From Acutalibacteraceae bacterium (GTDB taxonomy: Bacteria > Bacillota > Clostridia > Oscillospirales > Acutalibacteraceae): DNA of 64,000 nt. This document shows, one piece after another, positions 385 through 11,232 of the stretch (within the stretch, counting starts at the first letter, position 1; every line of letters starts with the position of its first letter). Where the stretch lies: contig JAZOQF010000193.1 of NCBI GenBank assembly GCA_045655905.1, forward strand, positions 1,102 through 65,101. The letters are read 5' to 3'. The position numbers and the translations under genes are program-made. The notes beneath the pieces are model-generated. The model ran no database searches. It was not told the DNA's origin and saw only the letters and a program-made list of their open reading frames with translations.

Positions 385-392
385 AGCAAAAA

Positions 393-442
393 GTTGCACA
401 AAAATAAAAAAATTTTTTGTGCAAAATGACGGAGCGCCCGGG
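393..442. promoter_or_regulatory. operator-like inverted repeat plus GC palindrome (copy a)
   Basis: TTGCACAA 393-400 and TTGTGCAA 416-423 with a 15 bp gap, then AATGACG and GCGCCCGGGC 433-442. Sits 8 bp upstream of the -35 at 379-384. Confidence 0.5.
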
Positions 443-458
443 CCGCCTTGAGGGCGGC
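442..458 (-). terminator. GC hairpin after CDS 464-736
   Basis: GCCGCC-TTGAG-GGCGGC stem-loop just past the TAA. No clear U-run follows. Confidence 0.4.
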
Positions 459-463
459 TGACT

Positions 464-736: not shown

Positions 737-764
737 AATAGTTCTCCTTTTTTTGTTATACCTA

Positions 765-793
765 ATTATAGCACATTTTTGGTCTCTTGTCAA
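765..793 (-). promoter_or_regulatory. sigma70/sigmaA-type early promoter
   Basis: Minus strand TTGACA-17 bp-TGcTATAAT, preceded by an AAAAATTTTTTT tract. Confidence 0.75.
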
Positions 794-816
794 GAGGTTT
801 GGCAAAAAAATTTTTC

Positions 817-843
817 CGCCCGGGCCGCTGCCAAAATTTACCA
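817..843. repeat. 27-nt intergenic repeat, copy 1
   Basis: cgcccgggccgctgccaaaatttacca is identical to 1431-1457. Confidence 0.85.
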
Positions 844-856
844 TTTTTCGCATAAG

Positions 857-878
857 AAAAAAGAGGGACAAGCCCTCT
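857..878 (-). terminator. intrinsic terminator
   Basis: AGAGGG-loop-CCCTCT stem followed on the minus strand by U6. Confidence 0.7.
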
Positions 879-882
879 TTTC

Positions 883-1308
883 TCACTCTGCTTTTGCCTT
901 GTTCCGTCTTGCAGAGTCAGCCGCAATCTTGCGAGCCTTTTTCTCTGCGGCGGCTTTGGCTTTCTGTGCCTTTTCCTCCAAGTCAATCGCATAGGACTCC
1001 AACTCTGCGTTGATGTCGGTATCCAATGCCTTGATTTTGAGGTCAATGGCGATGGTGATAGCACCAGAGCCTCCCTCGTTAGAGATGCCATCTGCGATGG
1101 CGTCGCAAGGGATTTCTACAAGGACACCGTCTGCGGCTCTGCCGACTACCTCAAACTGCTCTGCGAAATCCTCGCAAAGTGCGGCAAGCAACTCTGCTTT
1201 GAGGGCATTTCGTTCAGTTTGATGGATTTGCTCAATGCCAGCGGAATTGACGGTCACACGAAAATCTCTGTCCTTGATGGCGGAAATGAGTGCGGAAAAA
1301 TGAGTCAT
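883..1308 (-). CDS. hypothetical early protein (141 aa) with Lys/Ala/Glu-rich C-terminal tail
   Basis: Track ORF with ATG start, AGAGAGG RBS, promoter 1343-1371 and TGA stop. Confidence 0.7.
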   Translation of the reverse strand: MTHFSALISAIKDRDFRVTVNSAGIEQIHQTERNALKAELLAALCEDFAEQFEVVGRAADGVLVEIPCDAIADGISNEGGSGAITIAIDLKIKALDTDINAELESYAIDLEEKAQKAKAAAEKKARKIAADSARRNKAKAE

Positions 1309-1342
1309 ACCTAATACCTCTCTTTTGTTTTATTGTACTATA

Positions 1343-1371
1343 ATTATAACGCAAATTGCGGTAAAAGTCAA
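1343..1371 (-). promoter_or_regulatory. sigma70/sigmaA-type early promoter
   Basis: Minus strand TTGACT-17 bp-TATAAT. Confidence 0.7.
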
Positions 1372-1379
1372 TAGGCAAA

Positions 1380-1439
1380 TTGCACAAACTTTTACGAAAA
1401 TTGGAATGGAATTTGTGCAAAATGACGAAGCGCCCGGGC
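1380..1439. promoter_or_regulatory. operator-like inverted repeat plus GC palindrome (copy b)
   Basis: TTGCACAA 1380-1387 and TTGTGCAA 1413-1420 with a 25 bp gap, then AATGACG and GCGCCCGGGC 1430-1439. Sits 8 bp from the -35 at 1366-1371. Confidence 0.5.
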
Positions 1440-1457
1440 CGCTGCCAAAATTTACCA
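1431..1457. repeat. 27-nt intergenic repeat, copy 2
   Basis: Identical to 817-843. Confidence 0.85.
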
Positions 1458-1469
1458 ATTCGCGACAAT

Positions 1470-1496
1470 AAAAAAGAGAGGGGCTTTCGCCCCTCT
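1470..1496 (-). terminator. intrinsic terminator
   Basis: AGAGGGGC-GAAA-GCCCCTCT stem followed by a U-run on the minus strand. Confidence 0.8.
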
Positions 1497-1500
1497 TGCA

Positions 1501-1809
1501 TTAGTCAAACAGATTTACCGTAGGGGTAGGCTCTGCGACCTTTGCGGACTTCTTACGCTCTACCTTGACAGTGGGGTCAGCGGTGGAGATGGTAAGAGCA
1601 AGATGTGCGTACACAGTGTTACCTGTGAGATGGTCTTTCGCGACAGGAATGGAAAGACCGCCATTGACATTGGTCACAACCTCTGCGAGATTGGGGTTAG
1701 AGCCAAGTGCGGAAACTACCTGCCCCATAACCTGAGTCGCTACCATAGAGCGAACCTTTGCGGAAACATTGCCCTTCTCGTTAGTGAAAGAAATTACAGA
1801 CATAGCCAT
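1501..1809 (-). CDS. hypothetical early protein (102 aa)
   Basis: Track ORF with ATG start, GGAGAAAGG RBS, promoter 1865-1893 and TAA stop. Confidence 0.7.
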   Translation of the reverse strand: MAMSVISFTNEKGNVSAKVRSMVATQVMGQVVSALGSNPNLAEVVTNVNGGLSIPVAKDHLTGNTVYAHLALTISTADPTVKVERKKSAKVAEPTPTVNLFD

Positions 1810-1864
1810 AGTGGAAAAACCTTTCTCCGTTTTTAAGAGTGACGGCTCTCTTATTTACATACAT

Positions 1865-1893
1865 ATTATACCACAACCTTGGTGGTTTGTCAA
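1865..1893 (-). promoter_or_regulatory. sigma70/sigmaA-type early promoter
   Basis: Minus strand TTGACA-17 bp-TGgTATAAT. Confidence 0.75.
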
Positions 1894-1967
1894 GAGGTTC
1901 TTGAAAGTTTTTTGCAAAAACTTTTTACAGACCAAGCAACGCAATCTCTGTTTTCCACTCTTGACAT
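1890..1967 (-). CDS. possible leaderless micro-ORF (25 aa, MSRVENRDCVAWSVKSFCKKLSRTS)
   Basis: The ATG lies 4 nt after the -10 of promoter 1972-2000, and the TGA stop sits inside the next -35 hexamer. The ATGTCAAG start context is shared with 5749. Confidence 0.2.
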   Translation of the reverse strand: MSRVENRDCVAWSVKSFCKKLSRTS

Positions 1968-1971
1968 AACT

Positions 1972-2000
1972 ATTATACCGCATCTTCCGCCAAAAGTCAA
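1972..2000 (-). promoter_or_regulatory. sigma70/sigmaA-type early promoter
   Basis: Minus strand TTGACT-17 bp-TATAAT. Confidence 0.65.
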
Positions 2001-2012
2001 GACTTTGTTGTT

Positions 2013-2078
2013 CGTCATTTTGCACAAAGTTTTTTGTTTTTTGAGAGGGAATTTGTGCAAAATGACGGGCGCCCGGGC
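2013..2078. promoter_or_regulatory. operator-like inverted repeat with 16-bp arms plus GC palindrome (copy c)
   Basis: cgtcattttgcacaaa 2013-2028 is the reverse complement of tttgtgcaaaatgacg 2052-2067. GCGCCCGGGC lies at 2069-2078. Confidence 0.55.
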
Positions 2079-2080
2079 GA

Positions 2081-2096
2081 GTTAGCATATGCTAAC
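2081..2096 (-). terminator. perfect 16-bp palindrome hairpin overlapping the TAG stop
   Basis: GTTAGCATATGCTAAC. No U-run follows, so function is uncertain. Confidence 0.3.
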
Positions 2097-2346
2097 TCTC
2101 CCACTTTTTTGCGACTTCTTTCGCGTGGAGTTCTTCTTTAAGTAGTTGTTCTACACCAATTTCAACGCCCTCTTTAATGGTGTCAAAATCGTCCACAGAA
2201 AAATAATAAGTGTCTCTATATTTTGTGCGAAATATTTTCCAATTTGGTCTTACTACCTCGTATATACTAACTTCGCACATCGCACAACCAATAGAATAAG
2301 CACGACATTCAAAAGTACGCCCTTCTTTTTCAATAACTACTACCAT
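2092..2346 (-). CDS. hypothetical early protein (84 aa) ending in TAG
   Basis: Internal ATG of track ORF 2092-2406 (MVVVIEKEGRTFE...), with GTGAGGT RBS and promoter 2378-2406. This is the only early-region gene whose stop is TAG. Confidence 0.6.
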   Translation of the reverse strand: MVVVIEKEGRTFECRAYSIGCAMCEVSIYEVVRPNWKIFRTKYRDTYYFSVDDFDTIKEGVEIGVEQLLKEELHAKEVAKKWES

Positions 2347-2377
2347 AATGGATACCTCACTTTTTATTTCTATACAT

Positions 2378-2406
2378 ATTATATCATAAGACATACCAAA
2401 AATCAA
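2378..2406 (-). promoter_or_regulatory. sigma70/sigmaA-type early promoter
   Basis: Minus strand TTGATT-17 bp-TGaTATAAT. Confidence 0.6.
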
Positions 2407-2431
2407 TGGTCAAAGTATACAAAATAAAACC

Positions 2432-2464
2432 GTACAATTGTGCAAAATGACGAAGGCCGGGCGG
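2432..2464. promoter_or_regulatory. operator-like element with abutting half-sites (copy d)
   Basis: GTACAATTGTGCAA followed by AATGACG and a degenerate GGCCGGGCGG. Confidence 0.35.
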
Positions 2465-2602
2465 TTATTCAAAACCGCGCTGCTTCTGCTTGCGTAGCTG
2501 CTTGTCCAGCTTTTCTTGCTTCGTGGGCGTTTTCCGCGTGTACAAGCCGCCCCAAGTGGGGCGCTGCTTGCGTTCCTGTTTTTCAATGTTCTTTTTCAGC
2601 AT
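2465..2602 (-). CDS. small basic protein (45 aa)
   Basis: The ATG follows an AAGGAGAG that overlaps the TAA of 2615-3118. Sequence MLKKNIEKQERKQRPTWGGLYTRKTPTKQEKLDKQLRKQKQRGFE, below the track size cutoff. Confidence 0.5.
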   Translation of the reverse strand: MLKKNIEKQERKQRPTWGGLYTRKTPTKQEKLDKQLRKQKQRGFE

Positions 2603-2614
2603 CTCTTGCTCTCC

Positions 2615-3118
2615 TTATAGCGTCTTGCTTTCCGCTACAAAATATTTGGCGTTGTACTTGCTCAAAATAGCCTTTACTATCTCGCTTTCGTGCTGCGTAG
2701 GGCAATAGCAATTTACAATAGCATACTTGTCTGCCACCAAGATGTTATTTGCAATGCCTAATTGTTGTAGCGTTTTCACCAACTCCGCGCTTTCGTGTAG
2801 CGGAACTGTTGCTTCCACTTTCCAGAGTTTATCCTTGCGCTTCTTGAACTCTACTGCTTTCACGACATACACGCCAATGAGGTTAGCAATGCCAATGATA
2901 ACTGCTTTCCAGAAAAGACCAAGACCGTCAATGGTCATATAGACCACGACAACCGTATAAAGCGCATAGGCTACTGCGTTTGTGGCTGCTGCCGCCCACG
3001 CTCCCCATTTTACGGTGGCGATGCTCTTGATGGTTTGGATAACAACATTGACAATATTAAGGGCTACAAAGACCCAGAGAAAAACCGATAACTCAAAACT
3101 AAACCAATCCATATTCAT
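2615..3118 (-). CDS. integral membrane protein (167 aa), UPF0316/DUF2179-like layout
   Basis: Track ORF with hydrophobic helices in the N-terminal ~100 aa and a soluble C-terminal domain. The family call is from memory of that layout only. Confidence 0.6.
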   Translation of the reverse strand: MNMDWFSFELSVFLWVFVALNIVNVVIQTIKSIATVKWGAWAAAATNAVAYALYTVVVVYMTIDGLGLFWKAVIIGIANLIGVYVVKAVEFKKRKDKLWKVEATVPLHESAELVKTLQQLGIANNILVADKYAIVNCYCPTQHESEIVKAILSKYNAKYFVAESKTL

Positions 3119-3138
3119 TCTCCTTTTGTTTACAATCT

Positions 3139-3167
3139 ATTATAACACATTGTGGTGCTTTTGTCAA
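3139..3167 (-). promoter_or_regulatory. sigma70/sigmaA-type early promoter
   Basis: Minus strand TTGACA-17 bp-TGtTATAAT. Confidence 0.75.
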
Positions 3168-3176
3168 GGTATAATG

Positions 3177-3227
3177 TTGCACAAAGATAATGCGGCGAAA
3201 TTGTGCAAAATGACGGCGCGCCCGGGC
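3177..3227. promoter_or_regulatory. operator-like inverted repeat plus GC palindrome (copy e)
   Basis: TTGCACAA 3177-3184 and TTGTGCAA 3201-3208 with a 16 bp gap, then AATGACG and GCGCCCGGGC 3218-3227. Confidence 0.5.
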
Positions 3228-3229
3228 CA

Positions 3230-3250
3230 CCCTCTCCTTAACGGAGAGGG
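3230..3250 (-). terminator. GC hairpin overlapping stop codon
   Basis: CCCTCTCC-TTAAC-GGAGAGGG. Confidence 0.5.
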
Positions 3251-3462
3251 ATTTCCCAAGCGACCATACCGCAATCTAATGCGTATAGGTGCACACCACG
3301 CTTTTTGCCGTTGCATTCCAAGCCGTTTCGTGCGTTGCTGCGCTTCAAAGACATTGCGATTTTGTAGCAGATTCCGCACACAAGGCTACGGTCATCGGTT
3401 AAGCCGATGCGTTCAAAAACTTCACCAGTTTCGTAGTTGACGATGCGATAAGCGATATCCAT
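3238..3462 (-). CDS. hypothetical early protein (74 aa)
   Basis: Internal ATG of track ORF 3238-3522 (MDIAYRIVNYETGE...), with GAGGAG RBS, promoter 3494-3522 and TAA stop. Confidence 0.6.
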   Translation of the reverse strand: MDIAYRIVNYETGEVFERIGLTDDRSLVCGICYKIAMSLKRSNARNGLECNGKKRGVHLYALDCGMVAWEIPLR

Positions 3463-3493
3463 AATAAGTTCTCCTCTTGTTTGGTTATACCTA

Positions 3494-3522
3494 ATTATAC
3501 CACGGATCGGGACAAAAGTCAA
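3494..3522 (-). promoter_or_regulatory. sigma70/sigmaA-type early promoter
   Basis: Minus strand TTGACT-17 bp-TGgTATAAT. Confidence 0.7.
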
Positions 3523-3560
3523 GGGTTTTGCGAAAAAAATTTTTTGGCCCGGGCTAGGCC

Positions 3561-3579
3561 GCGAGGGTCAAGCCCTCGC
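3561..3579 (-). terminator. GC hairpin overlapping stop codon
   Basis: GCGAGGG-TCAAG-CCCTCGC. Confidence 0.5.
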
Positions 3580-3999
3580 TTCCAGCCATTCTACCATTTT
3601 TCTACTCTCGTCTTTCGCTCTGATTTTGGTCTTGCTACCATTTTTCTCGCTCTCGCGGGTCAAGTAGCCAAATTCGGTAACGAAAGTTCTAAACTCGCTC
3701 GCGTTCATCTCGTAGACCTTGAACTCGCGACTTACATAGGCGAAAGTCTTGCTCGCGACTCTTGCGAAATAATCGTCAAGCATCTCGCTCATTGTAGAGC
3801 CTTTCAGTTGCCCACCAGAGCAGAGGGAGAACTTGGCACTCTTGACGCTCATATCAAGTTCGGGGATATCAGAGCCTTCATACCATTTGAGATTGCCGTG
3901 CTTGCGGAGGCAACCAGTCTTTTCGTATGTAAGGGAGGCTTCACAGTTTTGACCGTGATTGGCATAAGCGGAGATATTAGAAATAAAGTAAGTAGTCAT
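3568..3999 (-). CDS. early paralog family member 1 (143 aa)
   Basis: Track ORF. Shares an N-terminal NHGxN..E, a central S(A/V)K(S)A...C.G and a C-terminal ESEKNG..K.R.KDES..M.E.LE.RA with 5881-6282 and 6493-6894. Confidence 0.7.
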   Translation of the reverse strand: MTTYFISNISAYANHGQNCEASLTYEKTGCLRKHGNLKWYEGSDIPELDMSVKSAKFSLCSGGQLKGSTMSEMLDDYFARVASKTFAYVSREFKVYEMNASEFRTFVTEFGYLTRESEKNGSKTKIRAKDESRKMVEWLEARA

Positions 4000-4032
4000 T
4001 TGGGGTATCCTTTCCTCTTGTGGTTATACCTA

Positions 4033-4061
4033 ATTATAACATACCTCGGGCAGTTTGTCAA
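4033..4061 (-). promoter_or_regulatory. sigma70/sigmaA-type early promoter
   Basis: Minus strand TTGACA-17 bp-TGtTATAAT. Confidence 0.75.
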
Positions 4062-4200
4062 GGGGTTTGGCGAAATTTTTTTTGAAATTTTTTTGTGGCT
4101 ACTGCTGCTGCTCGCATTGGTAAAATTTACCAGGGGCGCTAGCGCGCCCGGGCTGCTTATTTTATCCTTCAGGGATCCGGGCAGCCGGGCCGGGCGCAAT

Positions 4201-4228
4201 AAAAAAGGCCTGCCGAATCCGGCAGGCC
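4201..4228 (-). terminator. intrinsic terminator
   Basis: GGCCTGCC-loop-GGCAGGCC followed by U6 on the minus strand. Confidence 0.8.
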
Positions 4229-4233
4229 CGCGG

Positions 4234-4515
4234 TTAGGGATTTTCCCTAACCTCTGCGGTATGGATGTTGAGCCGCTCATTGCATTCGTAGCAAGTTTTT
4301 GCGGCATAGTAGTCAAACGGCTTGCAGTATTCGCGCATAAAAGCGGAAATGTGTCTGCGGGTAGTTGCGGAATAAAGCCCGTATACGGTTAGCCATCCGT
4401 CCGCGTCAAGTTCGGCTACGCGCGTATAGTAAGAGTAAAGATGGATGTTGCCGTTGTCGTCAATCTCAATGTGTGCTTGTGCATAGGGCATTGCGGAAAG
4501 TTTCTTGATAGTCAT
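4234..4515 (-). CDS. hypothetical early protein (93 aa)
   Basis: Track ORF with ATG start, AAGAGGA RBS, promoter 4549-4577 and TAA stop. Confidence 0.7.
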   Translation of the reverse strand: MTIKKLSAMPYAQAHIEIDDNGNIHLYSYYTRVAELDADGWLTVYGLYSATTRRHISAFMREYCKPFDYYAAKTCYECNERLNIHTAEVRENP

Positions 4516-4548
4516 TGTTGTTATCCTCTTTTCTTTTGGTTGTACCTT

Positions 4549-4577
4549 ATTATACCATATATCGGGCAGTTTGTCAA
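4549..4577 (-). promoter_or_regulatory. sigma70/sigmaA-type early promoter
   Basis: Minus strand TTGACA-17 bp-TGgTATAAT. Confidence 0.75.
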
Positions 4578-4611
4578 GGGTTTTGATGAAAAAAGTTGAA
4601 ATTTTTTGTAG

Positions 4612-4636
4612 AAAAAAAGAGGGACATTATCCCTCT
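4612..4636 (-). terminator. intrinsic terminator
   Basis: AGAGGGA-loop-TCCCTCT followed by U7 on the minus strand. Confidence 0.75.
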
Positions 4637-4752
4637 TTGTGTAGCGCGTGGCTTGGGCATTCTGTACAGTGACAGTTGAAGCACATTTCCTCATCCTCGT
4701 GGGGATTGCGGTCACACCAACGCTCTGGTTTTTCTATGATATTTGTAGTCAT
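4627..4752 (-). CDS. Cys-rich small protein (41 aa, probable zinc binder)
   Basis: My translation is MTTNIIEKPERWCDRNPHEDEEMCFNCHCTECPSHALHKEG, with AGAGGAAAG RBS and promoter 4785-4813. The track ORF 4521-4715 is in another frame and lacks these signals. Confidence 0.5.
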   Translation of the reverse strand: MTTNIIEKPERWCDRNPHEDEEMCFNCHCTECPSHALHKEG

Positions 4753-4784
4753 TTGTCTTTCCTCTTTCTTTTTTGTTATAACTA

Positions 4785-4813
4785 ATTATACCACATATCG
4801 GGTAGTTTGTCAA
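4785..4813 (-). promoter_or_regulatory. sigma70/sigmaA-type early promoter
   Basis: Minus strand TTGACA-17 bp-TGgTATAAT. Confidence 0.75.
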
Positions 4814-4965
4814 TAGGTTTGTAAAAGTTTTTTATTTTTTCTGCGAGTTTTTCGCTTGCCTTGTTTTTTATCCTCGCGCAATTTTCTGAGCCTTGCGCGC
4901 TGACAACAAAAAGCACGCGCGAACTTATCCTCTTTATAGTCTTTTTTATGTTCGTTGTTCGCCAT
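4810..4965 (-). CDS. very basic small protein (51 aa)
   Basis: My translation is MANNEHKKDYKEDKFARAFCCQRARLRKLREDKKQGKRKTRRKNKKLLQTY, with AGAGAGG RBS. The TGA stop is embedded in the next -35 hexamer (TATTGACA). Confidence 0.5.
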   Translation of the reverse strand: MANNEHKKDYKEDKFARAFCCQRARLRKLREDKKQGKRKTRRKNKKLLQTY

Positions 4966-4989
4966 TGTTTTTACCTCTCTTTTGTATAT

Positions 4990-5018
4990 ATTATACCATA
5001 TTTCGGCTCATTTGTCAA
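4990..5018 (-). promoter_or_regulatory. sigma70/sigmaA-type early promoter
   Basis: Minus strand TTGACA-17 bp-TGgTATAAT. Confidence 0.75.
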
Positions 5019-5058
5019 GAGTTTCGGCGAAAATTTTTTTGGCGCCCGGGCCGCGGCC

Positions 5059-5077
5059 GAGAGGGATGTTCCCTCTC
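5059..5077 (-). terminator. GC hairpin overlapping stop codon
   Basis: GAGAGGGA-TGT-TCCCTCTC, followed by GGCCGCGGCCCGGGCGCC. Confidence 0.45.
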
Positions 5078-5237
5078 AAGCCACCTCTGTATAGGTAACA
5101 ACATTGTTGACGGTATACAGTTTTTCAATCTTGATTGACGGATTGGTTTTGAAGACATAGTTGCAAAACTCACCGCCATTTTCAAAATAGAGTCTGCCGT
5201 TGTTAAGGGTTACGATGATATAGGAAAGATGTGCCAT
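5076..5237 (-). CDS. hypothetical small early protein (53 aa)
   Basis: My translation is MAHLSYIIVTLNNGRLYFENGGEFCNYVFKTNPSIKIEKLYTVNNVVTYTEVA, with AGAGGTAAA RBS and promoter 5271-5299. Below the track cutoff. Confidence 0.55.
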   Translation of the reverse strand: MAHLSYIIVTLNNGRLYFENGGEFCNYVFKTNPSIKIEKLYTVNNVVTYTEVA

Positions 5238-5270
5238 AATTTTTACCTCTTTTTCTTTTTGTTATACCTA

Positions 5271-5299
5271 ATTATACCATATCGGGAGAGGGATGTCAA
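5271..5299 (-). promoter_or_regulatory. sigma70/sigmaA-type early promoter
   Basis: Minus strand TTGACA-17 bp-TGgTATAAT. Confidence 0.75.
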
Positions 5300-5347
5300 G
5301 GGGTTTTGAAAAAAAGTTAAAAAATTTTTTGGCGCCCGGGCCGCGCA

Positions 5348-5384
5348 CGAAAGCACCCCAAGCAAGAGGAAAAACTTGGGGTGC
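5348..5384 (-). terminator. intrinsic terminator of the RNA cassette
   Basis: GCACCCCAAG-12 nt loop-CTTGGGGTGC, a 10-bp stem followed by CUUU on the minus strand. Confidence 0.65.
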
Positions 5385-5562
5385 CAAATAGGGGAACCGA
5401 AGCCCACACCTATTTTGTTCAATTTTAATTTACCCTTATTTTTAAGGGTTGAGTGTTGTAAAAGGGAAGCCTTGCAAGGTGACTTCTCCCCTCTCCTAGC
5501 ACCTTTTCTCCCTCTGCGAGAGTGGCAGCCTTGAAGTACAGTTCGTCGTCCTTCCCTCTTAC
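5348..5562 (-). ncRNA. candidate structured small RNA (~215 nt)
   Basis: Lies between consensus promoter 5569-5597 and terminator 5353-5384. The transcript contains no AUG. A closing helix GUAAGAGGGAAG / CUUCCCUUUUAC is present, plus hairpins AAGGUG..CACCUU, ACCCUUA..UAAGGGU and AAAUAGG..CCUAUUU. Confidence 0.4.
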
Positions 5563-5568
5563 ACTCAT

Positions 5569-5597
5569 ATTATACCACAAAACTTGTGGTTTGTCAA
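5569..5597 (-). promoter_or_regulatory. sigma70/sigmaA-type early promoter
   Basis: Minus strand TTGACA-17 bp-TGgTATAAT. The -10 abuts the ATG of track ORF 5425-5610, which argues against that ORF. Confidence 0.75.
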
Positions 5598-5668
5598 GGG
5601 ATTTCTGCAAAAAACTTTAGAATTTTTTGCATCCTCGTGCGTTCCTATGCGACTCGTCTATCGCAATT

Positions 5669-5749
5669 TTATGAGCACTAAGGTCTATTGCTACTTCCAA
5701 CCGTAGCCCCACACCGCAGATGTGGCTCAGAGGTATCTCCCCTTGACAT
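5669..5749 (-). CDS. possible leaderless micro-ORF (MSRGDTSEPHLRCGATVGSSNRP, then TAG-CS-TAA) or short RNA
   Basis: The ATG lies 4 nt after the -10 of promoter 5754-5782. The ATGTCAAG context matches 1967. The region also folds into several small hairpins. Confidence 0.2.
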
Positions 5750-5753
5750 TATT

Positions 5754-5782
5754 ATTATAACATATTGTGGCTTGCTTGTCAA
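5754..5782 (-). promoter_or_regulatory. sigma70/sigmaA-type early promoter
   Basis: Minus strand TTGACA-17 bp-TGtTATAAT. Confidence 0.7.
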
Positions 5783-5791
5783 TATGGCATT

Positions 5792-5851
5792 TTGCACAAA
5801 CTTTGGGGCTGCTGGCGCGCAGCTTTTGTGCATATTGACGGGCGCCCGGGC
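5792..5851. promoter_or_regulatory. operator-like inverted repeat plus GC palindrome (copy f)
   Basis: TTGCACAA 5792-5799 and TTGTGCAt 5826-5833 with a 26 bp gap, then ATTGACG and GCGCCCGGGC 5842-5851. Confidence 0.45.
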
Positions 5852-5866
5852 GCTAGCGGCCGGGGC

Positions 5867-5895
5867 AAAAAAGAGAGGGCTTATACCGCCCTCTC
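5867..5895 (-). terminator. intrinsic terminator
   Basis: GAGAGGGC-loop-GCCCTCTC overlapping the TAA, followed by U6 on the minus strand. Confidence 0.75.
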
Positions 5896-6282
5896 CTCAA
5901 GATATTTCAGCATTGCTTGTGACTCATCTTTTAATCTCATCTTAACCGCACCGCCGTTTTTCTCGCTCTCGGTTGTAACCGTTGCAAATGCGGTACAGAA
6001 TGCGATGTATTCGGCTTTAGTCATCTTGTATGCGATGCCAGCCTTTGTGCCGTAGATGTATTCGGTAGCACAGTCATCTTCAAGATACTTGACGATGTCA
6101 GTGCCCTTGCACACAGTTGCTCTCGCGCTCTTGATTTGGTAAATCAGGCAATCAGTGCCTTTGTTGTGCGCGATGTTGTCGGCTTTTTCAAGCTTGCCTG
6201 TGAGCAAGTAGCGGATGGATTGCTCTACATTGTGCCCGTGGTTGTGGTAGTTGTTGAGATAAGTGAAGTTGAAAGTAGTCAT
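5881..6282 (-). CDS. early paralog family member 2 (133 aa)
   Basis: Track ORF. About half its residues match 6493-6894 (LTGK.EKADNIAH.KGTD, KSARATVCKGTDI, ESEKNGG). Confidence 0.75.
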   Translation of the reverse strand: MTTFNFTYLNNYHNHGHNVEQSIRYLLTGKLEKADNIAHNKGTDCLIYQIKSARATVCKGTDIVKYLEDDCATEYIYGTKAGIAYKMTKAEYIAFCTAFATVTTESEKNGGAVKMRLKDESQAMLKYLEERAV

Positions 6283-6314
6283 TGATTGTGTCCTCTCTTG
6301 TTTGGTTGTACCTT

Positions 6315-6343
6315 ATTATACCATATAAACCCGGGCTTGTCAA
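6315..6343 (-). promoter_or_regulatory. sigma70/sigmaA-type early promoter
   Basis: Minus strand TTGACA-17 bp-TGgTATAAT, with CCCGGG inside the spacer. Confidence 0.75.
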
Positions 6344-6376
6344 GGGGTTTGCAAAAAATTTTTAAAAAATTTTTGT

Positions 6377-6490
6377 AGCTGCTGCTGGTGCGCGTGTGCG
6401 CGTGTATACACGGGTGCTGCTGGTGGTGCTGCTGGTGCTGCGTGTGCGCATATATATACGCGGGCGGGCGGGCGCGTGCGCGTGGACGGG
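6377..6490. repeat. simple-sequence mosaic I
   Basis: Successive blocks of (GCT/GGT)n, alternating GC/GT runs (gcgcgtgtgcgcgtgtatacac), tatatata and GGGCGGGCGGGC...GGGG. Confidence 0.9.
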
Positions 6491-6509
6491 GCTCACCTTG
6501 CGGTGAGCC
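6490..6509 (-). terminator. GC hairpin overlapping stop codon
   Basis: GGCTCACC-TTGC-GGTGAGCC. Confidence 0.5.
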
Positions 6510-6894
6510 ATTCCAACATTCTTTGTGTTTCGTGTCCCAGCCTGATTTTTGGGGTTCCCCCGTTCTTTTGGCTCTCACGGGTTACTGTGCCGAAGACTTG
6601 CACAAATTGCTCATATTCAGTACGGCTCATTATGTAGGCGGTGCCGTCTTTGGTGATGTAGGCGTATTTGCTTGCCTTGTCGGCATCAAGGTAGGCTTTG
6701 ATGTCGGTGCCCTTGCAGACGGTTGCTCTTGCCGATTTTACGGAATAGATGCCGATGTCGGTACCCTTGTCATGTGCGATGTTGTCGGCTTTTTCAACCT
6801 TACCCGTTAGGGTGTAGCGGAACCATTGTTCAAGGTGTTGTCCGTTGTTGCGGTAGGTGCGGTTAAAATTGGGGGTTAGAGTGAAGTGTTTCAT
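6493..6894 (-). CDS. early paralog family member 3 (133 aa)
   Basis: Internal ATG of track ORF 6493-6954 (MKHFTLTPNF...), with AGAGAGGA RBS, promoter 6926-6954 and TGA stop. Confidence 0.75.
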   Translation of the reverse strand: MKHFTLTPNFNRTYRNNGQHLEQWFRYTLTGKVEKADNIAHDKGTDIGIYSVKSARATVCKGTDIKAYLDADKASKYAYITKDGTAYIMSRTEYEQFVQVFGTVTRESQKNGGTPKIRLGHETQRMLEWLTAR

Positions 6895-6925
6895 TTTTGT
6901 ATCCTCTCTTGTTTGGTTGTACCTT

Positions 6926-6954
6926 ATTATACCATATGCACGGGCGGTTGTCAA
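6926..6954 (-). promoter_or_regulatory. sigma70/sigmaA-type early promoter (leftward arm, first cassette)
   Basis: Minus strand TTGACA-17 bp-TGgTATAAT. Confidence 0.75.
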
Positions 6955-7039
6955 TAGGTTTTTGAAAAAAAGTTAAAGAAATATTGCACAAATTTGAGAG
7001 GGAAATTTTGTGCAACTTTTTTTCAAAAACCTATTGACA
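6949..7039. promoter_or_regulatory. palindromic divergent control region
   Basis: The 26-bp arm tgtcaataggtttttgaaaaaaagtt (6949-6974) is the exact reverse complement of 7014-7039. Each arm contains a -35 hexamer. TTGCACAA 6984-6991 and TTGTGCAA 7008-7015 lie between them (copy g). Confidence 0.8.
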
Positions 7040-7062
7040 CGGGCGGAAAAGTGTGCTATAAT
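7034..7062 (+). promoter_or_regulatory. sigma70/sigmaA-type early promoter
   Basis: TTGACAcgggcggaaaagtgtgcTATAAT with a 17 bp spacer. Confidence 0.75.
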
Positions 7063-7095
7063 TAGTACAGAAATAAAGAAAGAGAGGGAAAAACA

Positions 7096-7197
7096 ATGTT
7101 AGGCGGTATTCTTTTTTTCGCAACCGTTGCGCTGTGTGCTTTTCTTCTTTGGGGCGCGTTTGGTGTACGCTCTATCAGAGAAGCGATTATGAGATGA
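7096..7197 (+). CDS. small hydrophobic peptide (33 aa)
   Basis: MLGGILFFATVALCAFLLWGAFGVRSIREAIMR, with GAGAGGGA RBS, TGA stop and terminator 7200-7222. Confidence 0.5.
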   Translation: MLGGILFFATVALCAFLLWGAFGVRSIREAIMR

Positions 7198-7199
7198 GA

Positions 7200-7222
7200 G
7201 GGAGCCGAAGGCTCCCTTTTTT
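7200..7222 (+). terminator. intrinsic terminator
   Basis: GGGAGCC-GAA-GGCTCCC followed by T6. Confidence 0.85.
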
Positions 7223-7258
7223 CTTAAAAAATTTTTTAAAAAATTTTTCAAAAAGTGC

Positions 7259-7287
7259 TTGACACGGGCGGAAAAGTGTGCTATAAT
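7259..7287 (+). promoter_or_regulatory. sigma70/sigmaA-type early promoter
   Basis: Same 29-mer TTGACAcgggcggaaaagtgtgcTATAAT as at 7034 and 8330. Confidence 0.75.
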
Positions 7288-7322
7288 ATAGACAGAAAGC
7301 AAGAGAAAGAGAGGAAAAGAAA

Positions 7323-7460
7323 ATGCTTTGGACTATCAAAAACACAATAACAGGACAGGTAGCCGCGGCTTTTGGTGTTACCAAAAAAGAGGCTTGCGAT
7401 GCTCTCAATTGGAATTATCGCGTTTGCGAAGTTCTCGCCTCTACTTGCCGTTATTGGTAA
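7323..7460 (+). CDS. small early protein (45 aa)
   Basis: MLWTIKNTITGQVAAAFGVTKKEACDALNWNYRVCEVLASTCRYW, with AGAGAGGAAAAG RBS, TAA stop and terminator 7469-7491. Confidence 0.5.
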   Translation: MLWTIKNTITGQVAAAFGVTKKEACDALNWNYRVCEVLASTCRYW

Positions 7461-7468
7461 GAGGGAGA

Positions 7469-7491
7469 GGGAGCCGAAAGGCTCCCTTTTT
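7469..7491 (+). terminator. intrinsic terminator
   Basis: GGGAGCC-GAAA-GGCTCCC followed by T5. Confidence 0.85.
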
Positions 7492-7520
7492 GTATTGCTT
7501 TAATGTTAAAATTTTACAAT

Positions 7521-8034
7521 TTTTAATGCTACTGCTTGCTGCGTGTTGCCGCTGCTGCCTGCTGCTGCTCGTGCTGCCGTCGCCGTTGCTGATGGCGTGT
7601 GCGTGCGTGCGTGCGTGCGTGCGTGGGTGTGTGTGGGTGTGCTTATCCCTATCCTATCCCTATCTTATCCCTATCCTATCCCTATCCTATCCCTATCCTA
7701 TCCCTATCCTATCTTTATCCTATCCCTATCCTATCTTTATCCTATCTTTATCCTATCCCTATCCTATCTTTATCCTATCTTTATCCTATCCCTATCCTAT
7801 CTTTATCCTATCCCTATCCTATCTTTATCCTTGTCTTGTCTTGTCTTTGTCTTGTCTTTGTCTTGTCTTTGTCTTGTCTTTGTCTTGTCTTTTGTGTGTG
7901 TGTGTGTGTGTATGTGCAGACGGAGAGCGACGGACAGAACAACGGAGCAACGGAGAGAGAGGGAGAGAGGGAGAGAGGGAGAGAGAGGGAGAGAGGGAGA
8001 AAGGCTTTTTCTAAAAAAAAAAAAAAAAAAAAAA
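7521..8034. repeat. simple-sequence mosaic II (about 510 bp)
   Basis: Ordered blocks: CTG/GCC-rich 7528-7595; (GTGC)n and GT-rich 7605-7642; a G-free TATCC/TATCTT-type repeat 7643-7830; (CTTGT/CTTTGT)n 7829-7892; (GT)n 7893-7916; ACGG-rich 7921-7953; polypurine (GGGAGAGA)n 7953-8003; A22 8013-8034. Confidence 0.95.
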
Positions 8035-8057
8035 TAAAAAAAATTTTTCAAAATCCC

Positions 8058-8086
8058 TTGACACGGGCGAAAAACTATGTTATAAT
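8058..8086 (+). promoter_or_regulatory. sigma70/sigmaA-type early promoter
   Basis: TTGACAcgggcgaaaaactatgtTATAAT with a 17 bp spacer. Confidence 0.75.
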
Positions 8087-8139
8087 TAGTACAGAAAGAG
8101 GGAAGGAAAACCGACTAAACCAAGAAAGGAAAGAGGAAA

Positions 8140-8256
8140 ATGTTTGATAGAAATGCTTTGGAAAACTTTGTGTGTGGTATCGTTACAAAAGGCTGGATTG
8201 TAGTCGTTGCAATGTTTGCAGTAACTATGGCTTTGTTGATGACAGTAGGAGCATAA
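8140..8256 (+). CDS. small hydrophobic peptide (38 aa)
   Basis: MFDRNALENFVCGIVTKGWIVVVAMFAVTMALLMTVGA, with AAGAGGAAA RBS and TAA stop. Confidence 0.5.
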   Translation: MFDRNALENFVCGIVTKGWIVVVAMFAVTMALLMTVGA

Positions 8257-8263
8257 AAGGAGA

Positions 8264-8321
<58 letters not shown>

Positions 8322-8329
8322 AAAACCCC

Positions 8330-8358
8330 TTGACACGGGCGGAAAAGTGTGCTATAAT
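8330..8358 (+). promoter_or_regulatory. sigma70/sigmaA-type early promoter
   Basis: TTGACAcgggcggaaaagtgtgcTATAAT. Confidence 0.75.
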
Positions 8359-8415
8359 ATAGACAGTAAAAGGGAAGGAAAACCGACTAAACCACAAGAA
8401 AGAAAGAGGTAAAAA

Positions 8416-8598
8416 ATGAAACTTTATATTGTTATGTTCAAGGATGCTTGCGAATGGGAAGCACAGGAATGGTTGGGCGGAGTATTCTCCACCGAGGAAA
8501 AAGCTCAGGCGTATATGGAAGCATACATCAACGATGATGATGACGACGATGTAGAAGGATACATCACCACCCGCACCTTGGATGACGATGAGTTATAA
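8416..8598 (+). CDS. acidic small protein (60 aa)
   Basis: Track ORF with AAGAGGTAAAAA RBS and a D/E-rich C-terminal half (DDDDDDVEGY...DDDEL). Confidence 0.7.
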   Translation: MKLYIVMFKDACEWEAQEWLGGVFSTEEKAQAYMEAYINDDDDDDVEGYITTRTLDDDEL

Positions 8599-8605
8599 AA
8601 AGAGA

Positions 8606-8629
8606 GGGAGCCGAAAGGCTCCCTTTTTT
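8606..8629 (+). terminator. intrinsic terminator
   Basis: GGGAGCC-GAAA-GGCTCCC followed by T6. Confidence 0.85.
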
Positions 8630-8631
8630 CT

Positions 8632-8653
8632 AAAAAAAAAAAAAAAAAAAAAA
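8632..8653. repeat. poly(A)22 tract upstream of promoter
   Basis: A run of 22 A. Confidence 0.95.
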
Positions 8654-8675
8654 TAAAAATTTTTTTAAAAACCCC

Positions 8676-8704
8676 TTGACAAACCCCTCAAACTATGCTA
8701 TAAT
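8676..8704 (+). promoter_or_regulatory. sigma70/sigmaA-type early promoter
   Basis: TTGACA-17 bp-TGcTATAAT. Confidence 0.75.
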
Positions 8705-8735
8705 ATAGACAGAAAGAACGAAAGAGGTAAACACA

Positions 8736-8834
8736 ATGAAAACACTTAAAACTTTTGCAAGAGAGAATAACGCGACTGAGGTAAACATCTACCATCGCAG
8801 AAAGACCGCAACCTTAAAGGGTCTTTGCAAGTAA
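8736..8834 (+). CDS. basic 32-aa peptide, paralog 1
   Basis: MKTLKTFARENNATEVNIYHRRKTATLKGLCK, with AAGAGGTAAA RBS. About 70 percent identical to 9363-9461. Confidence 0.55.
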   Translation: MKTLKTFARENNATEVNIYHRRKTATLKGLCK

Positions 8835-8840
8835 CCGAGA

Positions 8841-8865
8841 GGAAGCCGAAAGGCTTCCTTTTTTT
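8841..8865 (+). terminator. intrinsic terminator
   Basis: GGAAGCC-GAAA-GGCTTCC followed by T7. Confidence 0.85.
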
Positions 8866-8900
8866 ACTAAAAAATTTTTTAAAAATTTTTCAAAAATCCC

Positions 8901-8929
8901 TTGACAAATGCCCGGGAATTTGTTATAAT
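8901..8929 (+). promoter_or_regulatory. sigma70/sigmaA-type early promoter
   Basis: TTGACA-17 bp-TGtTATAAT, with CCCGGG in the spacer. Confidence 0.75.
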
Positions 8930-8986
8930 TAATACAGAAAGAGGGAAGAAAAACCGACTAAACCACAATACAGAAAGAGGTATAAA

Positions 8987-9235
8987 ATGACTAAACTTGA
9001 ATTGATGGCAATGCTTGAAGGTATCGCAGATGATGCAGAAATCACTTTTGTAGAAAGCGTGAGAGACCGCGATGGTTATCCCCAAGATGAAAGAGTAAAG
9101 GTCTACAAGGTACTTGGTGGCGAGGTTGTAAGTGTGAGAGGCGAATGCGGTTGCTACACTCTTGAAAATCTCACAGATGAAATTGAGTATATCCGCTGGA
9201 ATGAATATGGCGGATATTACCGCAGAAAGAAATAA
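8987..9235 (+). CDS. hypothetical early protein (82 aa)
   Basis: Track ORF with AAGAGGTATAAA RBS and TAA stop. Confidence 0.7.
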   Translation: MTKLELMAMLEGIADDAEITFVESVRDRDGYPQDERVKVYKVLGGEVVSVRGECGCYTLENLTDEIEYIRWNEYGGYYRRKK

Positions 9236-9242
9236 AAAGAGA

Positions 9243-9266
9243 GGGAGTCGCAAGACTCCCTTTTTT
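9243..9266 (+). terminator. intrinsic terminator
   Basis: GGGAGTC-GCAA-GACTCCC followed by T6. Confidence 0.85.
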
Positions 9267-9302
9267 ACTAAAAAAATTTTTAAAAAATTTTTTATAAACC
9301 CC

Positions 9303-9331
9303 TTGACAAACTCGCCAAACTATGATATAAT
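9303..9331 (+). promoter_or_regulatory. sigma70/sigmaA-type early promoter
   Basis: TTGACA-17 bp-TGaTATAAT. Confidence 0.75.
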
Positions 9332-9362
9332 TAGTACAGAAAGAAAGAAAAGAGGATACAAA

Positions 9363-9461
9363 ATGAAAACCCTGAAGACCTTCGCAAACACCGCAAACAT
9401 CACCGAGGTAAACACTTACCACCGCAGAAAGCCCGCAACCCTGAAAGCAATGTGTAAGTAA
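9363..9461 (+). CDS. basic 32-aa peptide, paralog 2
   Basis: MKTLKTFANTANITEVNTYHRRKPATLKAMCK, the tail of track ORF 9162-9461, with AAGAGGATACAAA RBS. Confidence 0.55.
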   Translation: MKTLKTFANTANITEVNTYHRRKPATLKAMCK

Positions 9462-9467
9462 GGGGAT

Positions 9468-9516
9468 GCCCCCCTCTCTCCCGATAAAATGGGAGAGACC
9501 CCGGGGGGGTGTTTTT
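9468..9516 (+). terminator. long GC hairpin terminator closing the rightward early arm
   Basis: TCTCTCCC-GATAAAAT-GGGAGAGA inner stem, flanked by C6/G7 runs and followed by T5. Confidence 0.65.
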
Positions 9517-9659
9517 GTGGAAAAAGTTGACCGCCAAAAATGCGTAACGAACACTGGGCAAAAGATTATCTACGCAATTTTTCAGCTTCCCACATTCCAA
9601 AACCCAAACAAAATTAAACCCCACACTCCAATCCAGCCTTTTCCATCCAATCCTCAACT

Positions 9660-9688
9660 AAAAAAAGAGAACCCCTTTCGAGGTTCTC
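9660..9688 (-). terminator. intrinsic terminator
   Basis: GAGAACC-loop-GGTTCTC followed by U7 on the minus strand. Confidence 0.75.
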
Positions 9689-10058
9689 AATCCATTAAAA
9701 TTCGCTTGATCTAATTTAAGCTTTCGACCGCAATTCCTGGAGCGCTCAATTCCAATCCAACCAAAACATTGCCGCTTCTTTTATAAATTCCAGAAGCCAA
9801 ACTGAAAATCATATCGCCACCAACGATCTTACAGTTCAAAATTTTCAACTCTTCTGCGGTCGAAAAATCCAACATTGCGGCAAAAGAGCCATCAGACTGC
9901 ACACTGACCTGAACATTTTGCGGCGGGATCTAACAAAAATGCGCGAGGTTAGCTTGTTTTTCCGCGACGGTGCGGGATAATAGCTACTGAAAGTCAATAT
10001 TGTTTGGACATACTTCGTCTTCTGGCATTATTTTTGTTGTTTTTACTGTTGTTTCCAT
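9687..10058 (-). CDS. hypothetical protein (123 aa) with 3 in-frame TAG
   Basis: Extends track ORF 9711-9902 through TAG at 9711, 9930 and 9984 to a TGA at 9687. Promoter 10121-10149. No good RBS is present, so the start (ATG 10058 or 10028) is uncertain. Confidence 0.4.
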
Positions 10059-10120
10059 ATCTTTTGTAACGGAAGATTTGTTTGTTTGTTTTGTTTCCGT
10101 TCTCCTGTTCTCCTACAATT

Positions 10121-10149
10121 ATTATATCGCAATTTGCGGCCGAAGTCAA
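10121..10149 (-). promoter_or_regulatory. sigma70/sigmaA-type promoter
   Basis: Minus strand TTGACT-17 bp-TATAAT. Confidence 0.65.
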
Positions 10150-10173
10150 GTTCTTTTTTACGCCTCTGTAAAT

Positions 10174-10202
10174 TTGACTTTTACAATCTTTTGTGGTATA
10201 AT
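10174..10202 (+). promoter_or_regulatory. sigma70/sigmaA-type promoter at head of packaging/structural operon
   Basis: TTGACT-17 bp-TGgTATAAT, 29 nt upstream of ATG 10231. Confidence 0.7.
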
Positions 10203-10230: not shown

Positions 10231-11232
10231 ATGATAGAATTCAAAACTGCAAAATGTCCGAAGTGCGGCAAAATTGCGGAAATAATTTTCTCAAACAATC
10301 CTCTGGTGCCAGGAATTTGCAATCGTTGTATTTGCAATGAATTGGATGGCGGAAACCTTGAACAAGCAGATTTCTTTTGTAGAACTTATAATTTGCCCTT
10401 TAGACCAGAACGTTGGATCGAGTTGTAGGAAAGATGCGGCGAAGGAGTTTTTAAGCAATACACCAAAGAATTTTTTGAGACAGATAGCAATAATCTTTAT
10501 CGACAGGACGTGACTCCTGATTGGTGGAAGCGAATAAATGAAGAGTGGGCGAATTGCAGAACTTACGAAGAAGTTTTAGCTAAAATTGAACCCATTAAAC
10601 AATCTTTTATTGCGCGAAGCCAAATCAAATGGGGGCCTAACTACACTTTTGAAGAATATGTGCAGTTAGATAGTTTGTTAATTAGCACATTGCGTGCTGG
10701 TGACATTTCTAACCCTTTGCGAATTGATGCTATCAAAAAAGCTTGTAAGATTTCCGTTGAATTGGATAAAGCCATTTACGCTGGCGATAGCAAGGGTATT
10801 AAAGAGTTGTCCAGTTCTTATAGTTCATTTACGAAATCCGCTCAGCTTGACGAAATTATTGCATCAGACAACAATGATGTAATTTCCACTGTTGCGGAGC
10901 TAGCCGACTACATTGAGAAATGCGGCGGCCAGTATACATATTATGACGGTGTTCAGCGCGACATCGTTGATAAAACAATTGCAGATATTAAAGAATATAT
11001 CCGAGTTTTGGTTCAAGACGCGACTGGTTTGAGTGCAACATTGGAAAATATTGCGGAAAATTATAAGCGTAGTGTGGCTACAGCTGCGGATGAAGAGTCT
11101 TTTGCCGCGGTTTCGTTAGAAGAACTAATGAAACAAAATGAAGGAGATAATGAAGTGCTGGATGCCGAACTCGCGGCGGAAAGCCTTGATGAAGACTTCA
11201 TGGGTGCAGAAGACGGAGATGAATATTTTTAA
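10231..11232 (+). CDS. zinc-ribbon protein, positional candidate small terminase (333 aa)
   Basis: Track ORFs 10231-10428 and 10510-11232 share a frame and are joined through TAG 10426. GGAGGAAAG RBS, N-terminal CPKC...CNRC, acidic C-terminus, and a TAATG overlap with TerL. Confidence 0.55.

Follow-up and report, generated by a model that had tools for sequence, protein, structure and literature searches.

A hypervariable simple-sequence mosaic in the early cassette array of an apparently SPbeta-related metagenomic phage is missing from its closest relatives

A mosaic junction that differs between close relatives

The DNA analysed here (contig JAZOQF010000193.1 of assembly GCA_045655905.1, positions 1,102 to 65,101; 64,000 nucleotides [nt], hereafter the window) contains at window positions 7492–8012 a chain of simple-sequence blocks, the mosaic, which starts directly after the terminator of one small early gene. 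The mosaic is real and present in at least two strains; its perfect repeats are the parts that vary, and the nearest relatives can dispense with it. We read it as a dispensable, non-transcribed, hypervariable compound tandem-repeat spacer that would have arisen by slippage and unequal recombination, a reading to which we assign a probability of roughly 0.6. The sequence points to a metagenomic phage with a distant relationship to SPbeta. The window encodes a YorL-type DNA polymerase III alpha of 1304 amino acids (aa) that is 40% identical to SPbeta-group proteins, as well as topoisomerase II, DnaB helicase, primase and RecJ, and YonG/YonD/YonB-domain genes are present in relatives.

The early region (window 1–10,200) is a divergent array of approximately 25 promoter/tiny gene/terminator cassettes with a switch point near position 7000. 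Each cassette is made up of a consensus TTGACA-17-TGnTATAAT promoter (20 array promoters score 12/12), a purine-rich leader, a gene of 27–167 codons and a hairpin terminator. Junctions on the plus strand share a common layout: stop codon, GAGAGGGAG, GGGAGCCGAAAGGCTCCC, T6, CT, an A/T tract and then CCCCTTGACA. They are 70–86 base pairs (bp) in length; the mosaic-bearing junction alone is 606 bp, and is flanked by a 45-aa gene on the left and a 38-aa gene on the right.

Three relatives cover this junction (L001, L002 and L014), all of which are short-read contigs. L001 and L002, found in ENA in two assemblies, are the two closest relatives of the window, with 98% protein identity and 89–93% DNA identity in the flanks. 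Neither has the mosaic: the 45-aa gene is followed by the terminator hairpin, 6 bp (AACCGC in L001, ATCCGC in L002), A24, the promoter and the 38-aa gene. L014 is a 793-bp contig from an independent sample that was found via the 45-aa protein. The 33-aa and 45-aa genes are both present on it, followed by the terminator, by the palindromic element at the left end of the mosaic and by the first ~300 bp of the mosaic itself; the contig ends inside the G-free array described below. Because this independent contig shares the left flank and, with changes in repeat units, the initial 300 bp, we conclude that the mosaic is real. This confirmation covers the left ~300 bp only, the path through the 188-bp array and the right half coming from one assembly.

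Identity between the window and L014 differs from block to block. It is 93.2% in the flanks, 95% in the A/T palindromic element (7492–7530) and 96.9% in the imperfect CTG/GCC block, versus 73.5% in the alternating block, where L014 has (GTGCGTGG)n and an 8-bp indel, and 65.9% in array units 7–10 (in L014, A ×5 and then TATCTTTATTC ×4); the first five array units are identical. Slippage is favoured by this pattern, since the imperfect block is stable and the perfect arrays vary. A preliminary description of the locus, made from the sequence alone, had listed hypervariability among several possibilities, and the unit-level differences in L014 together with the lack of the mosaic in L001 and L002 bear this out.

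The mosaic is not the only difference of this kind. The 33-aa cassette (7063–7287) and the cassette at 5881–6343, which encodes a 133-aa paralogue, are also missing from L001 and L002. Their breakpoints lie within repeated promoters, which indicates that cassettes are gained and lost by homologous recombination between repeated regulatory sequences.

We were unable to identify further copies of the mosaic. Among 75 related loci, the interior (7534–7982) had no match except L014, and more distant relatives with the same promoter architecture have neither such blocks nor a mosaic counterpart. No second assembly was found for 7800–8012: exact-protein look-ups for the right-flank genes returned the source contig only or nothing, and the window's 133-, 82-, 60- and 38-aa proteins were either not on record or recorded for the source contig only. 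Near and distant DNA searches of GenBank phages gave no match to the mosaic region, a result limited by the low-complexity filter of BLAST. Pattern scans of IMG/VR gave no match to the cassette promoter, the TATCC unit or the A/T palindrome, and a scan of GTDB genomes gave none to the cassette promoter. A family scan of genomes returned one distant match, in an uncultured Bacilli metagenome-assembled genome.

Anatomy of the mosaic

The coordinates of the blocks are given in Table 1. All of the sequence features in the preliminary description, which had placed the mosaic at 7521–8034, are present, and the region is indeed intergenic, between a real terminator and a real promoter. Both ends were revised. 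An A/T-rich palindromic element that starts at 7492, immediately next to the terminator, is the true left end of the mosaic, and the A22 tract that had been taken as the end of the chain is a promoter-upstream tract of a type also found before other cassette promoters (A29 at 8291–8319, A22-T-A5 at 8632–8653 and A24 in L001).

Table 1. Features of the mosaic-bearing junction and of a second simple-sequence junction (window coordinates)
Feature	Position	Strand	Remarks
Second, smaller simple-sequence junction block	6373–6490		CTG/GTG-rich; precedes the minus-strand promoter at 6343
Intrinsic terminator after the 45-aa gene, intact	7464–7491	+	GGGAGCCGAAAGGCTCCC plus T-run, 12-pair stem; left boundary
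A/T-rich element with palindrome AATGTTAAAATTTTACAATT	7492–7530		
Imperfect CTG/GCC-rich block, nearly A-free	7531–7594	+	
Alternating purine-pyrimidine block, (GTGC)n then GGGTGTG	7595–7643		Z-DNA-capable sequence type
G-free array, 17 units of 11 bp (188 bp)	7644–7831	+	Tandem Repeats Finder score 271
(CTTGT/CTTTGT)n array, 11-bp compound unit, 5.8 copies, A-free	7827–7892	+	
(TG)12 dinucleotide repeat	7893–7916		Within a 26-nt alternating run
T-free purine-rich block: four ACGGA motifs, then (GGGAGAGA)n	7917–7984	+	
Decayed second cassette-terminator copy	7985–8012	+	GAGAGGGAG-AAAGGCT-TTTTTCT
A22-T-A8 tract (8013–8043) plus T/A stretch	8013–8057	+	A22 at 8013–8034; promoter-upstream tract
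Consensus sigma-70 promoter, extended -10, 12/12	8058–8086	+	Predicted to drive the 38-aa gene (8140–8256)

A hairpin of the type that bounds the mosaic on the left ends five plus-strand cassettes and is conserved in L014 and L001. The adjoining A/T-rich element looks like an operator in its sequence; its palindrome, 14 nt in length, is the sole inverted repeat in 7400–8150, where no large inverted repeats were found. From there on, tandem repeats with periods of 3, 4, 11, 5/11, 2 and 8/18/26 bp abut each other over 7527–8004, as determined with Tandem Repeats Finder.

The G-free array has a hierarchical structure: units of 5–6 bp pair into two 11-bp units, A (TATCCCTATCC) and B (TATCTTTATCC), which together with a variant, x (TATCCCTATCT), make up the string A x A A A A B A B B A B B A B A B. 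A higher-order period of 33 bp is superimposed on the 11-bp array, with an autocorrelation of 0.94 at lag 33 (the best lag). With its immediate borders, the array forms a G-free run of 191 nt (7642–7832).

The right end of the mosaic is recognizable as a second copy of the cassette terminator. Between (GGGAGAGA)n and the A-tract stands CTTTTTCT; in comparison with the canonical GAGAGGGAG-CCG-AAAGGCT-CCC-TTTTTCT, the 28 bp at 7985–8012 have two 3-bp losses (CCG and CCC), which destroy the hairpin. The terminator scan makes no call at this segment, and MAFFT aligns it to the L001 terminator. The (GGGAGAGA)n block runs straight on from the GAGAGGGAG flank of this decayed copy. On the evidence of its borders, the mosaic lies between two terminator copies and corresponds to a cassette slot without promoter or gene.

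Read on the minus strand, the left third of the mosaic consists of alternating ACGC/CACA sequence, a CAG-rich stretch, GCAGTAGC and then an A/T tract. The same order is found at junction 6343–6493 and, in miniature, at 4095–4125, and (CTG)3 occurs on the same strand at all three junctions (the mosaic, 4102 and 6379).

In composition the mosaic is extreme. Of all runs in the 64-kb window that lack A, G or T, the longest of each type is in the mosaic; so are the longest stretch of purines and the two alternating purine-pyrimidine runs of greatest length (31 nt at 7595–7625, and 26 nt). The T-free run is 90 nt (7916–8005) and the polypurine tract 53 nt (7952–8004). Five GGG runs with 5–7 nt loops at 7961–7997, matching a G-quadruplex regular expression (G3N5-7), make up two of the three such motifs in the 64 kb. 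In the 596 kb comprising the window and the 75 related loci, the mosaic is by far the largest low-complexity block. This concentration is not due to chance. The motifs prone to non-B DNA structure (the alternating runs, the polypurine tract and the G-runs) that the preliminary description had named are thus all present, and it is by sequence type that they are recognized; their presence does not in itself show a function.

No coding or RNA signal was found in the mosaic. Its long open reading frames, already described as artefacts of the repeats, encode low-complexity peptides (LSLSYPYPI...) with neither a ribosome-binding site nor a promoter, and a protein-coding reading was rejected. There are no promoter-like sites inside the mosaic on either strand and no terminator call, and Rfam gave no match within 7492–8012 at E ≤ 1. 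The single-strand DNA fold is weakly better than that of shuffled sequences (z = -2.5), with an unstructured centroid. A structured non-coding RNA was rejected on the lack of a promoter, the lack of an Rfam match and the weak fold. A large hairpin between the TATCCC and GGGAGA arrays was discarded as well: the two are paired in the minimum-energy fold, but with the same z value and an open centroid. With an intact terminator upstream and no internal promoter, the mosaic is predicted not to be transcribed by design. DnaA boxes were also absent, no TTATCCACA-like site (one mismatch or fewer) being found inside the mosaic. A scan for Chi-type motifs found GCTGGTGG once and GCGCGTG four times, all in 6373–6490 and none in the mosaic.

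Origin of the mosaic and alternative explanations

We infer that short seeds already present at such junctions most likely expanded in situ into the blocks, through replication slippage and unequal recombination. The clearest candidate seed is the GAGAGGGAG terminator flank, which would have given rise to (GGGAGAGA)n. Growth would have proceeded hierarchically from 5–6 bp units to 11-bp units and then to 33-bp super-units; the AxAAAABABBABBABAB order and its lag-33 period are the pattern expected from repeated rounds of slippage or unequal exchange. The mosaic as a whole may be gained or lost as the cassettes are, by recombination between repeated terminator and promoter sequences. No sequence-specific function would be needed: at most, the mosaic would serve as passive spacing of two strong transcription units and as structure-prone DNA.

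A junction in L001 may show what an unexpanded counterpart looks like. The terminator and palindrome module of L001 sits elsewhere, after the 38-aa gene, and its palindrome element is present twice (87% over 70 bp); after the module come a short GT-rich segment and then a hairpin with TTATCCCT as its loop and right arm. The succession of terminator, palindrome, GT and TTATCCCT is ordered like the left half of the mosaic. An origin of the mosaic from an L001-like junction fits this order, but significant similarity stops at the palindrome and we retain the idea as a suggestion only.

Several points weigh against the slippage reading. Like sequence types (GC-rich alternating runs of at least 18 nt, and (CTG)n beside an A/T tract) recur at the three junctions, always on the same strand, and selection instead of a mutational bias could be the cause. 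The conservation of the CTG/GCC block matches that of the coding flanks. The period of 11 bp shared by the two longer arrays is close to the helical repeat, and a protein-binding or bending role predicts the same. It is unusual for a phage to contain 0.5 kb of pure filler; simple-sequence density in phages is low, and approximately 78% of it is within coding sequence (PMC6426759). In addition, the comparison comprises only three relatives at this junction, and the event could be either an insertion or a deletion.

Selection for structure would be the basis of one alternative, which we regard as unlikely: that the mosaic is a functional spacer whose Z-DNA-, triplex- and G-quadruplex-prone blocks absorb supercoiling or insulate strong early promoters, the sequence type itself being selected. 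Z-DNA forms in vivo at alternating purine-pyrimidine inserts placed upstream of active promoters, in keeping with the twin-domain model, and non-B motifs concentrate at the mosaic and at 6373–6490, on either side of the divergent promoter pair near 7000. GC-rich alternating runs of 18 nt or more, each upstream of a promoter A/T tract, are confined in the 596 kb to the window and L001/L002; the sole other alternating run of this length is AT-rich and lies in L009. However, L001 and L002 have the same two genes and the same promoters with zero spacer, six other plus-strand junctions have equally strong promoters and just 70–86 bp, and the distant relatives share the promoter architecture without such blocks. 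The single-strand fold is weak, and the structures are predicted from motifs. Since the relatives manage without the mosaic, an insulator or supercoiling-sink role cannot be required at this position, and this also argues against a non-B element being necessary. The recurring Z-prone blocks may, with a small probability, be under selection. If they and the purine/pyrimidine blocks are, these would be a rare natural case of a phage using non-B DNA against transcription-driven supercoiling between very strong promoters. A bolder version, and a long shot, is that the recurring one-strand blocks are selected "structure-switch" DNA, acting as supercoil-absorbing insulators or as a decoy or sink for a host nucleoid or defence protein, with the repeats turning over fast. 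More speculative still, the gene-less slots could be birthplaces of micro-genes, as several reading frames are open across them and promoters and terminators stand ready on their flanks.

Variation between strains, which the slippage reading takes as a by-product, could also be the purpose of the locus. In a contingency (phase-variable) locus, repeat number would shift the spacing or phasing to the 8058 promoter, or read-through from the 45-aa gene, and so tune the downstream small genes. The repeat-unit polymorphism, the difference in poly-A length (A22 in the window versus A24 in L001) and the position of the mosaic directly upstream of a promoter are compatible with this. We consider it very unlikely all the same. 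Known contingency tracts are of a single repeat type and lie within promoters or coding sequence; here the arrays are more than 50 bp upstream of the A-tract and promoter module, the variable ones being 200–450 bp upstream of the -35 box and beyond that complete module, which has an identical layout at junctions without a mosaic. A strong intact terminator also precedes the mosaic. Still more improbable is an array of centromere, iteron, packaging or injection type, to whose 11-bp units a protein of the phage or of the host would bind cooperatively. Such an array would fit the 17 and 5.8 copies of 11-bp units with their near-helical period, the single arrays of 12–31 bp units in non-coding early-region DNA of other family lineages, and the large untranslated repeat regions in the pre-early cassette region of T5 (bioRxiv 10.1101/866236). 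The units differ between strains, though, and the closest relatives lack them altogether; DnaA boxes are absent, the 14-nt palindrome is the sole inverted repeat, the neighbouring genes encode 33–60 aa peptides with no recognizable partner among them, and the T5 regions keep their order across 25 relatives, the opposite of the mosaic. The preliminary suggestion of a packaging, injection or replication site is not supported, insofar as an essential site is meant: the nearest relatives keep both flanking genes without the mosaic, and T5-like conservation, inverted repeats and DnaA boxes are lacking.

A partial assembly artefact, in which the left part is real and the path through the 188-bp array is wrong (in copy number or through a mis-join), such that no contiguous 510-bp chain exists, appears quite unlikely. 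A 188-bp array is presumably long for short-read assembly, L014 breaks inside it and L001/L002 and L045 break inside other arrays, and 7800–8012 is found in one assembly only. Against this, the right end passes, in the expected register, into a recognizable decayed terminator and then the canonical A-tract and promoter, the A/B unit pattern provides internal variation to anchor reads, and the left 300 bp are reproduced independently.

Comparison with known systems

The mosaic belongs to a known kind of locus, the compound microsatellite or variable-number tandem repeat (VNTR) locus. It shares with these the head-to-tail arrangement of short units, different arrays that abut one another, polymorphism in unit number and type between close strains, stable imperfect and variable perfect parts, and assemblies that break inside; like them it is non-coding, with no need for conservation. 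A 0.5-kb chain of six block types is unusual. Catalogued phage simple-sequence repeats are short (PMC6426759), whereas the mosaic is much longer, combines six or more block types in 0.5 kb and lies inside an ordered cassette array.

Phage T5 offers a parallel in its untranslated repeat regions and injection stop signal (iss), which are also large, non-coding, repeat-filled stretches among the promoter/small gene/terminator units of a large early region of virulent type. These contain direct and inverted repeats, palindromes and 8 DnaA boxes, in an order conserved across 25 T5-like phages (bioRxiv 10.1101/866236). In contrast, the mosaic consists of simple-sequence arrays, has no DnaA boxes and one small palindrome, and is missing in the nearest relatives. 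A T5-type injection stop was rejected, as the mosaic has neither the conservation nor the inverted repeats nor the DnaA boxes. The mosaic also resembles the "moron"-type cassettes of phages in being bounded by two terminator copies and in being present or absent as a unit between close relatives; unlike these, it is a gene-less slot of simple sequence, with neither promoter nor gene.

In SPbeta, intergenic promoter regions carry SPBRE, a 15-bp protein-binding motif that is the operator of the MrpR repressor (PMC10516654). The present SPbeta-related phage likewise has short repeated early intergenic elements, GTCATTTTGCACAA and GCGCCCGGGC; these do not lie inside the mosaic, which is not itself a repeated operator. 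GTCATTTTGCACAA occurs eight times (with two mismatches or fewer) and GCGCCCGGGC, which contains a palindrome, 12 times, both in minus-strand junctions only (window 417–5853). The two are usually neighbours, located after a terminator and before the promoter that follows it, and are a candidate operator whose position is comparable to that of the SPBRE/MrpR sites of SPbeta.

We found no description of such phage simple-sequence mosaics in the literature, for SPbeta-like or other phages. The preliminary statement that no phage element looks like this was nevertheless too strong, as compound simple-sequence islands occur sporadically in other viral contigs. Similarities are long (GTGC/GCGT)n runs, some of which abut a second array, in non-coding DNA and often at contig ends; differences are that these islands are rare, lie on unrelated contigs and usually have one or two block types. 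(GTGC)6 is present in 60 of 2.9 million IMG/VR contigs. Examples are (CAGCGCC)n(ACGC)n in L085 (4119–4363) and (GCGT)n with a 21-bp array in L080 (2966–3236); further islands, in L079 (5368–5670) and L108 (278–1126), have (GCGT/GTGC)n arrays of up to ~850 bp.

Some SPbeta-related phages of the gut and rumen have early cassette arrays with long simple-sequence spacers that vary between strains. Several contigs end inside such arrays (L014, L001/L002, L045 and L036), so that copy numbers there should be distrusted. The spacers could be used as a high-resolution strain marker, and the locus illustrates how repeated promoter and terminator sequences drive the gain and loss of cassettes.

Other simple-sequence junctions and the cassette array

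The second simple-sequence junction block of the window (6373–6490) has alternating GCGC/GCGT runs of 25, 24 and 13 nt. Its orthologue in L001 and L002 retains a 37-nt core and has indels in the simple parts; L002 ends inside it. A different junction block is found in L001 (1–81) and L002 (1–133), where a 27-nt alternating ACGC-type run is followed by at least seven copies of a 16-bp unit (GGGGTCAACGGGTCAC). This block lies upstream of a promoter A/T tract, and both contigs end inside it. The promoter-upstream tracts themselves come in two interchangeable forms: poly-A (A22–A29), and an A6T5-type form phased at 11–12 bp (curved-DNA type). Phased AAAAAATTTTT tracts take the place of poly-A at other junctions, and further upstream tracts are located at 6353–6374, 7220–7254, 8870–8897 and 9269–9298.

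In other lineages of the family, the non-coding early-region DNA has single tandem arrays only, and the L045 and L036 contigs end in these. L009 has ~800 bp of non-coding, low-complexity sequence (1540–2330) of TACATAT type and GGTAGGTAAG type, and 12–16 bp tandem arrays with similar motifs are found in L036 (1–84), L043 (19049–19217) and L054 (48–147); the L009-type DNA may be a conserved non-coding region. A purine-rich spacer 3' of a 132-aa gene is strongly different between L009 (10400–10510) and L010 (900–1009), the genes being nearly identical. L003 (10580–10750; also L004–L007, and L019 at 10542–10629) has iteron-like repeats of 30–31 bp (TGTGAAATATTTAACAAAT...) directly downstream of a 133-aa gene, to which the window has no counterpart.

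The peptides encoded around the mosaic have either no Pfam match or a match only to DUF7336 (a domain of unknown function). A family of 133–143 aa proteins with no Pfam domain is represented by three minus-strand paralogues (3568–3999, 5881–6282 and 6493–6894), and the 133-aa protein neighbouring the mosaic has 587 metagenomic homologues. In more distant relatives this family is present as a single copy adjoining YonG/YonD/YonB-like genes. Downstream in the array, window 9177–9273 has a sub-threshold Rfam match to sraA (39.8 bits versus a gathering score of 56; E = 8e-4), which overlaps a cassette terminator and is probably just the hairpin.

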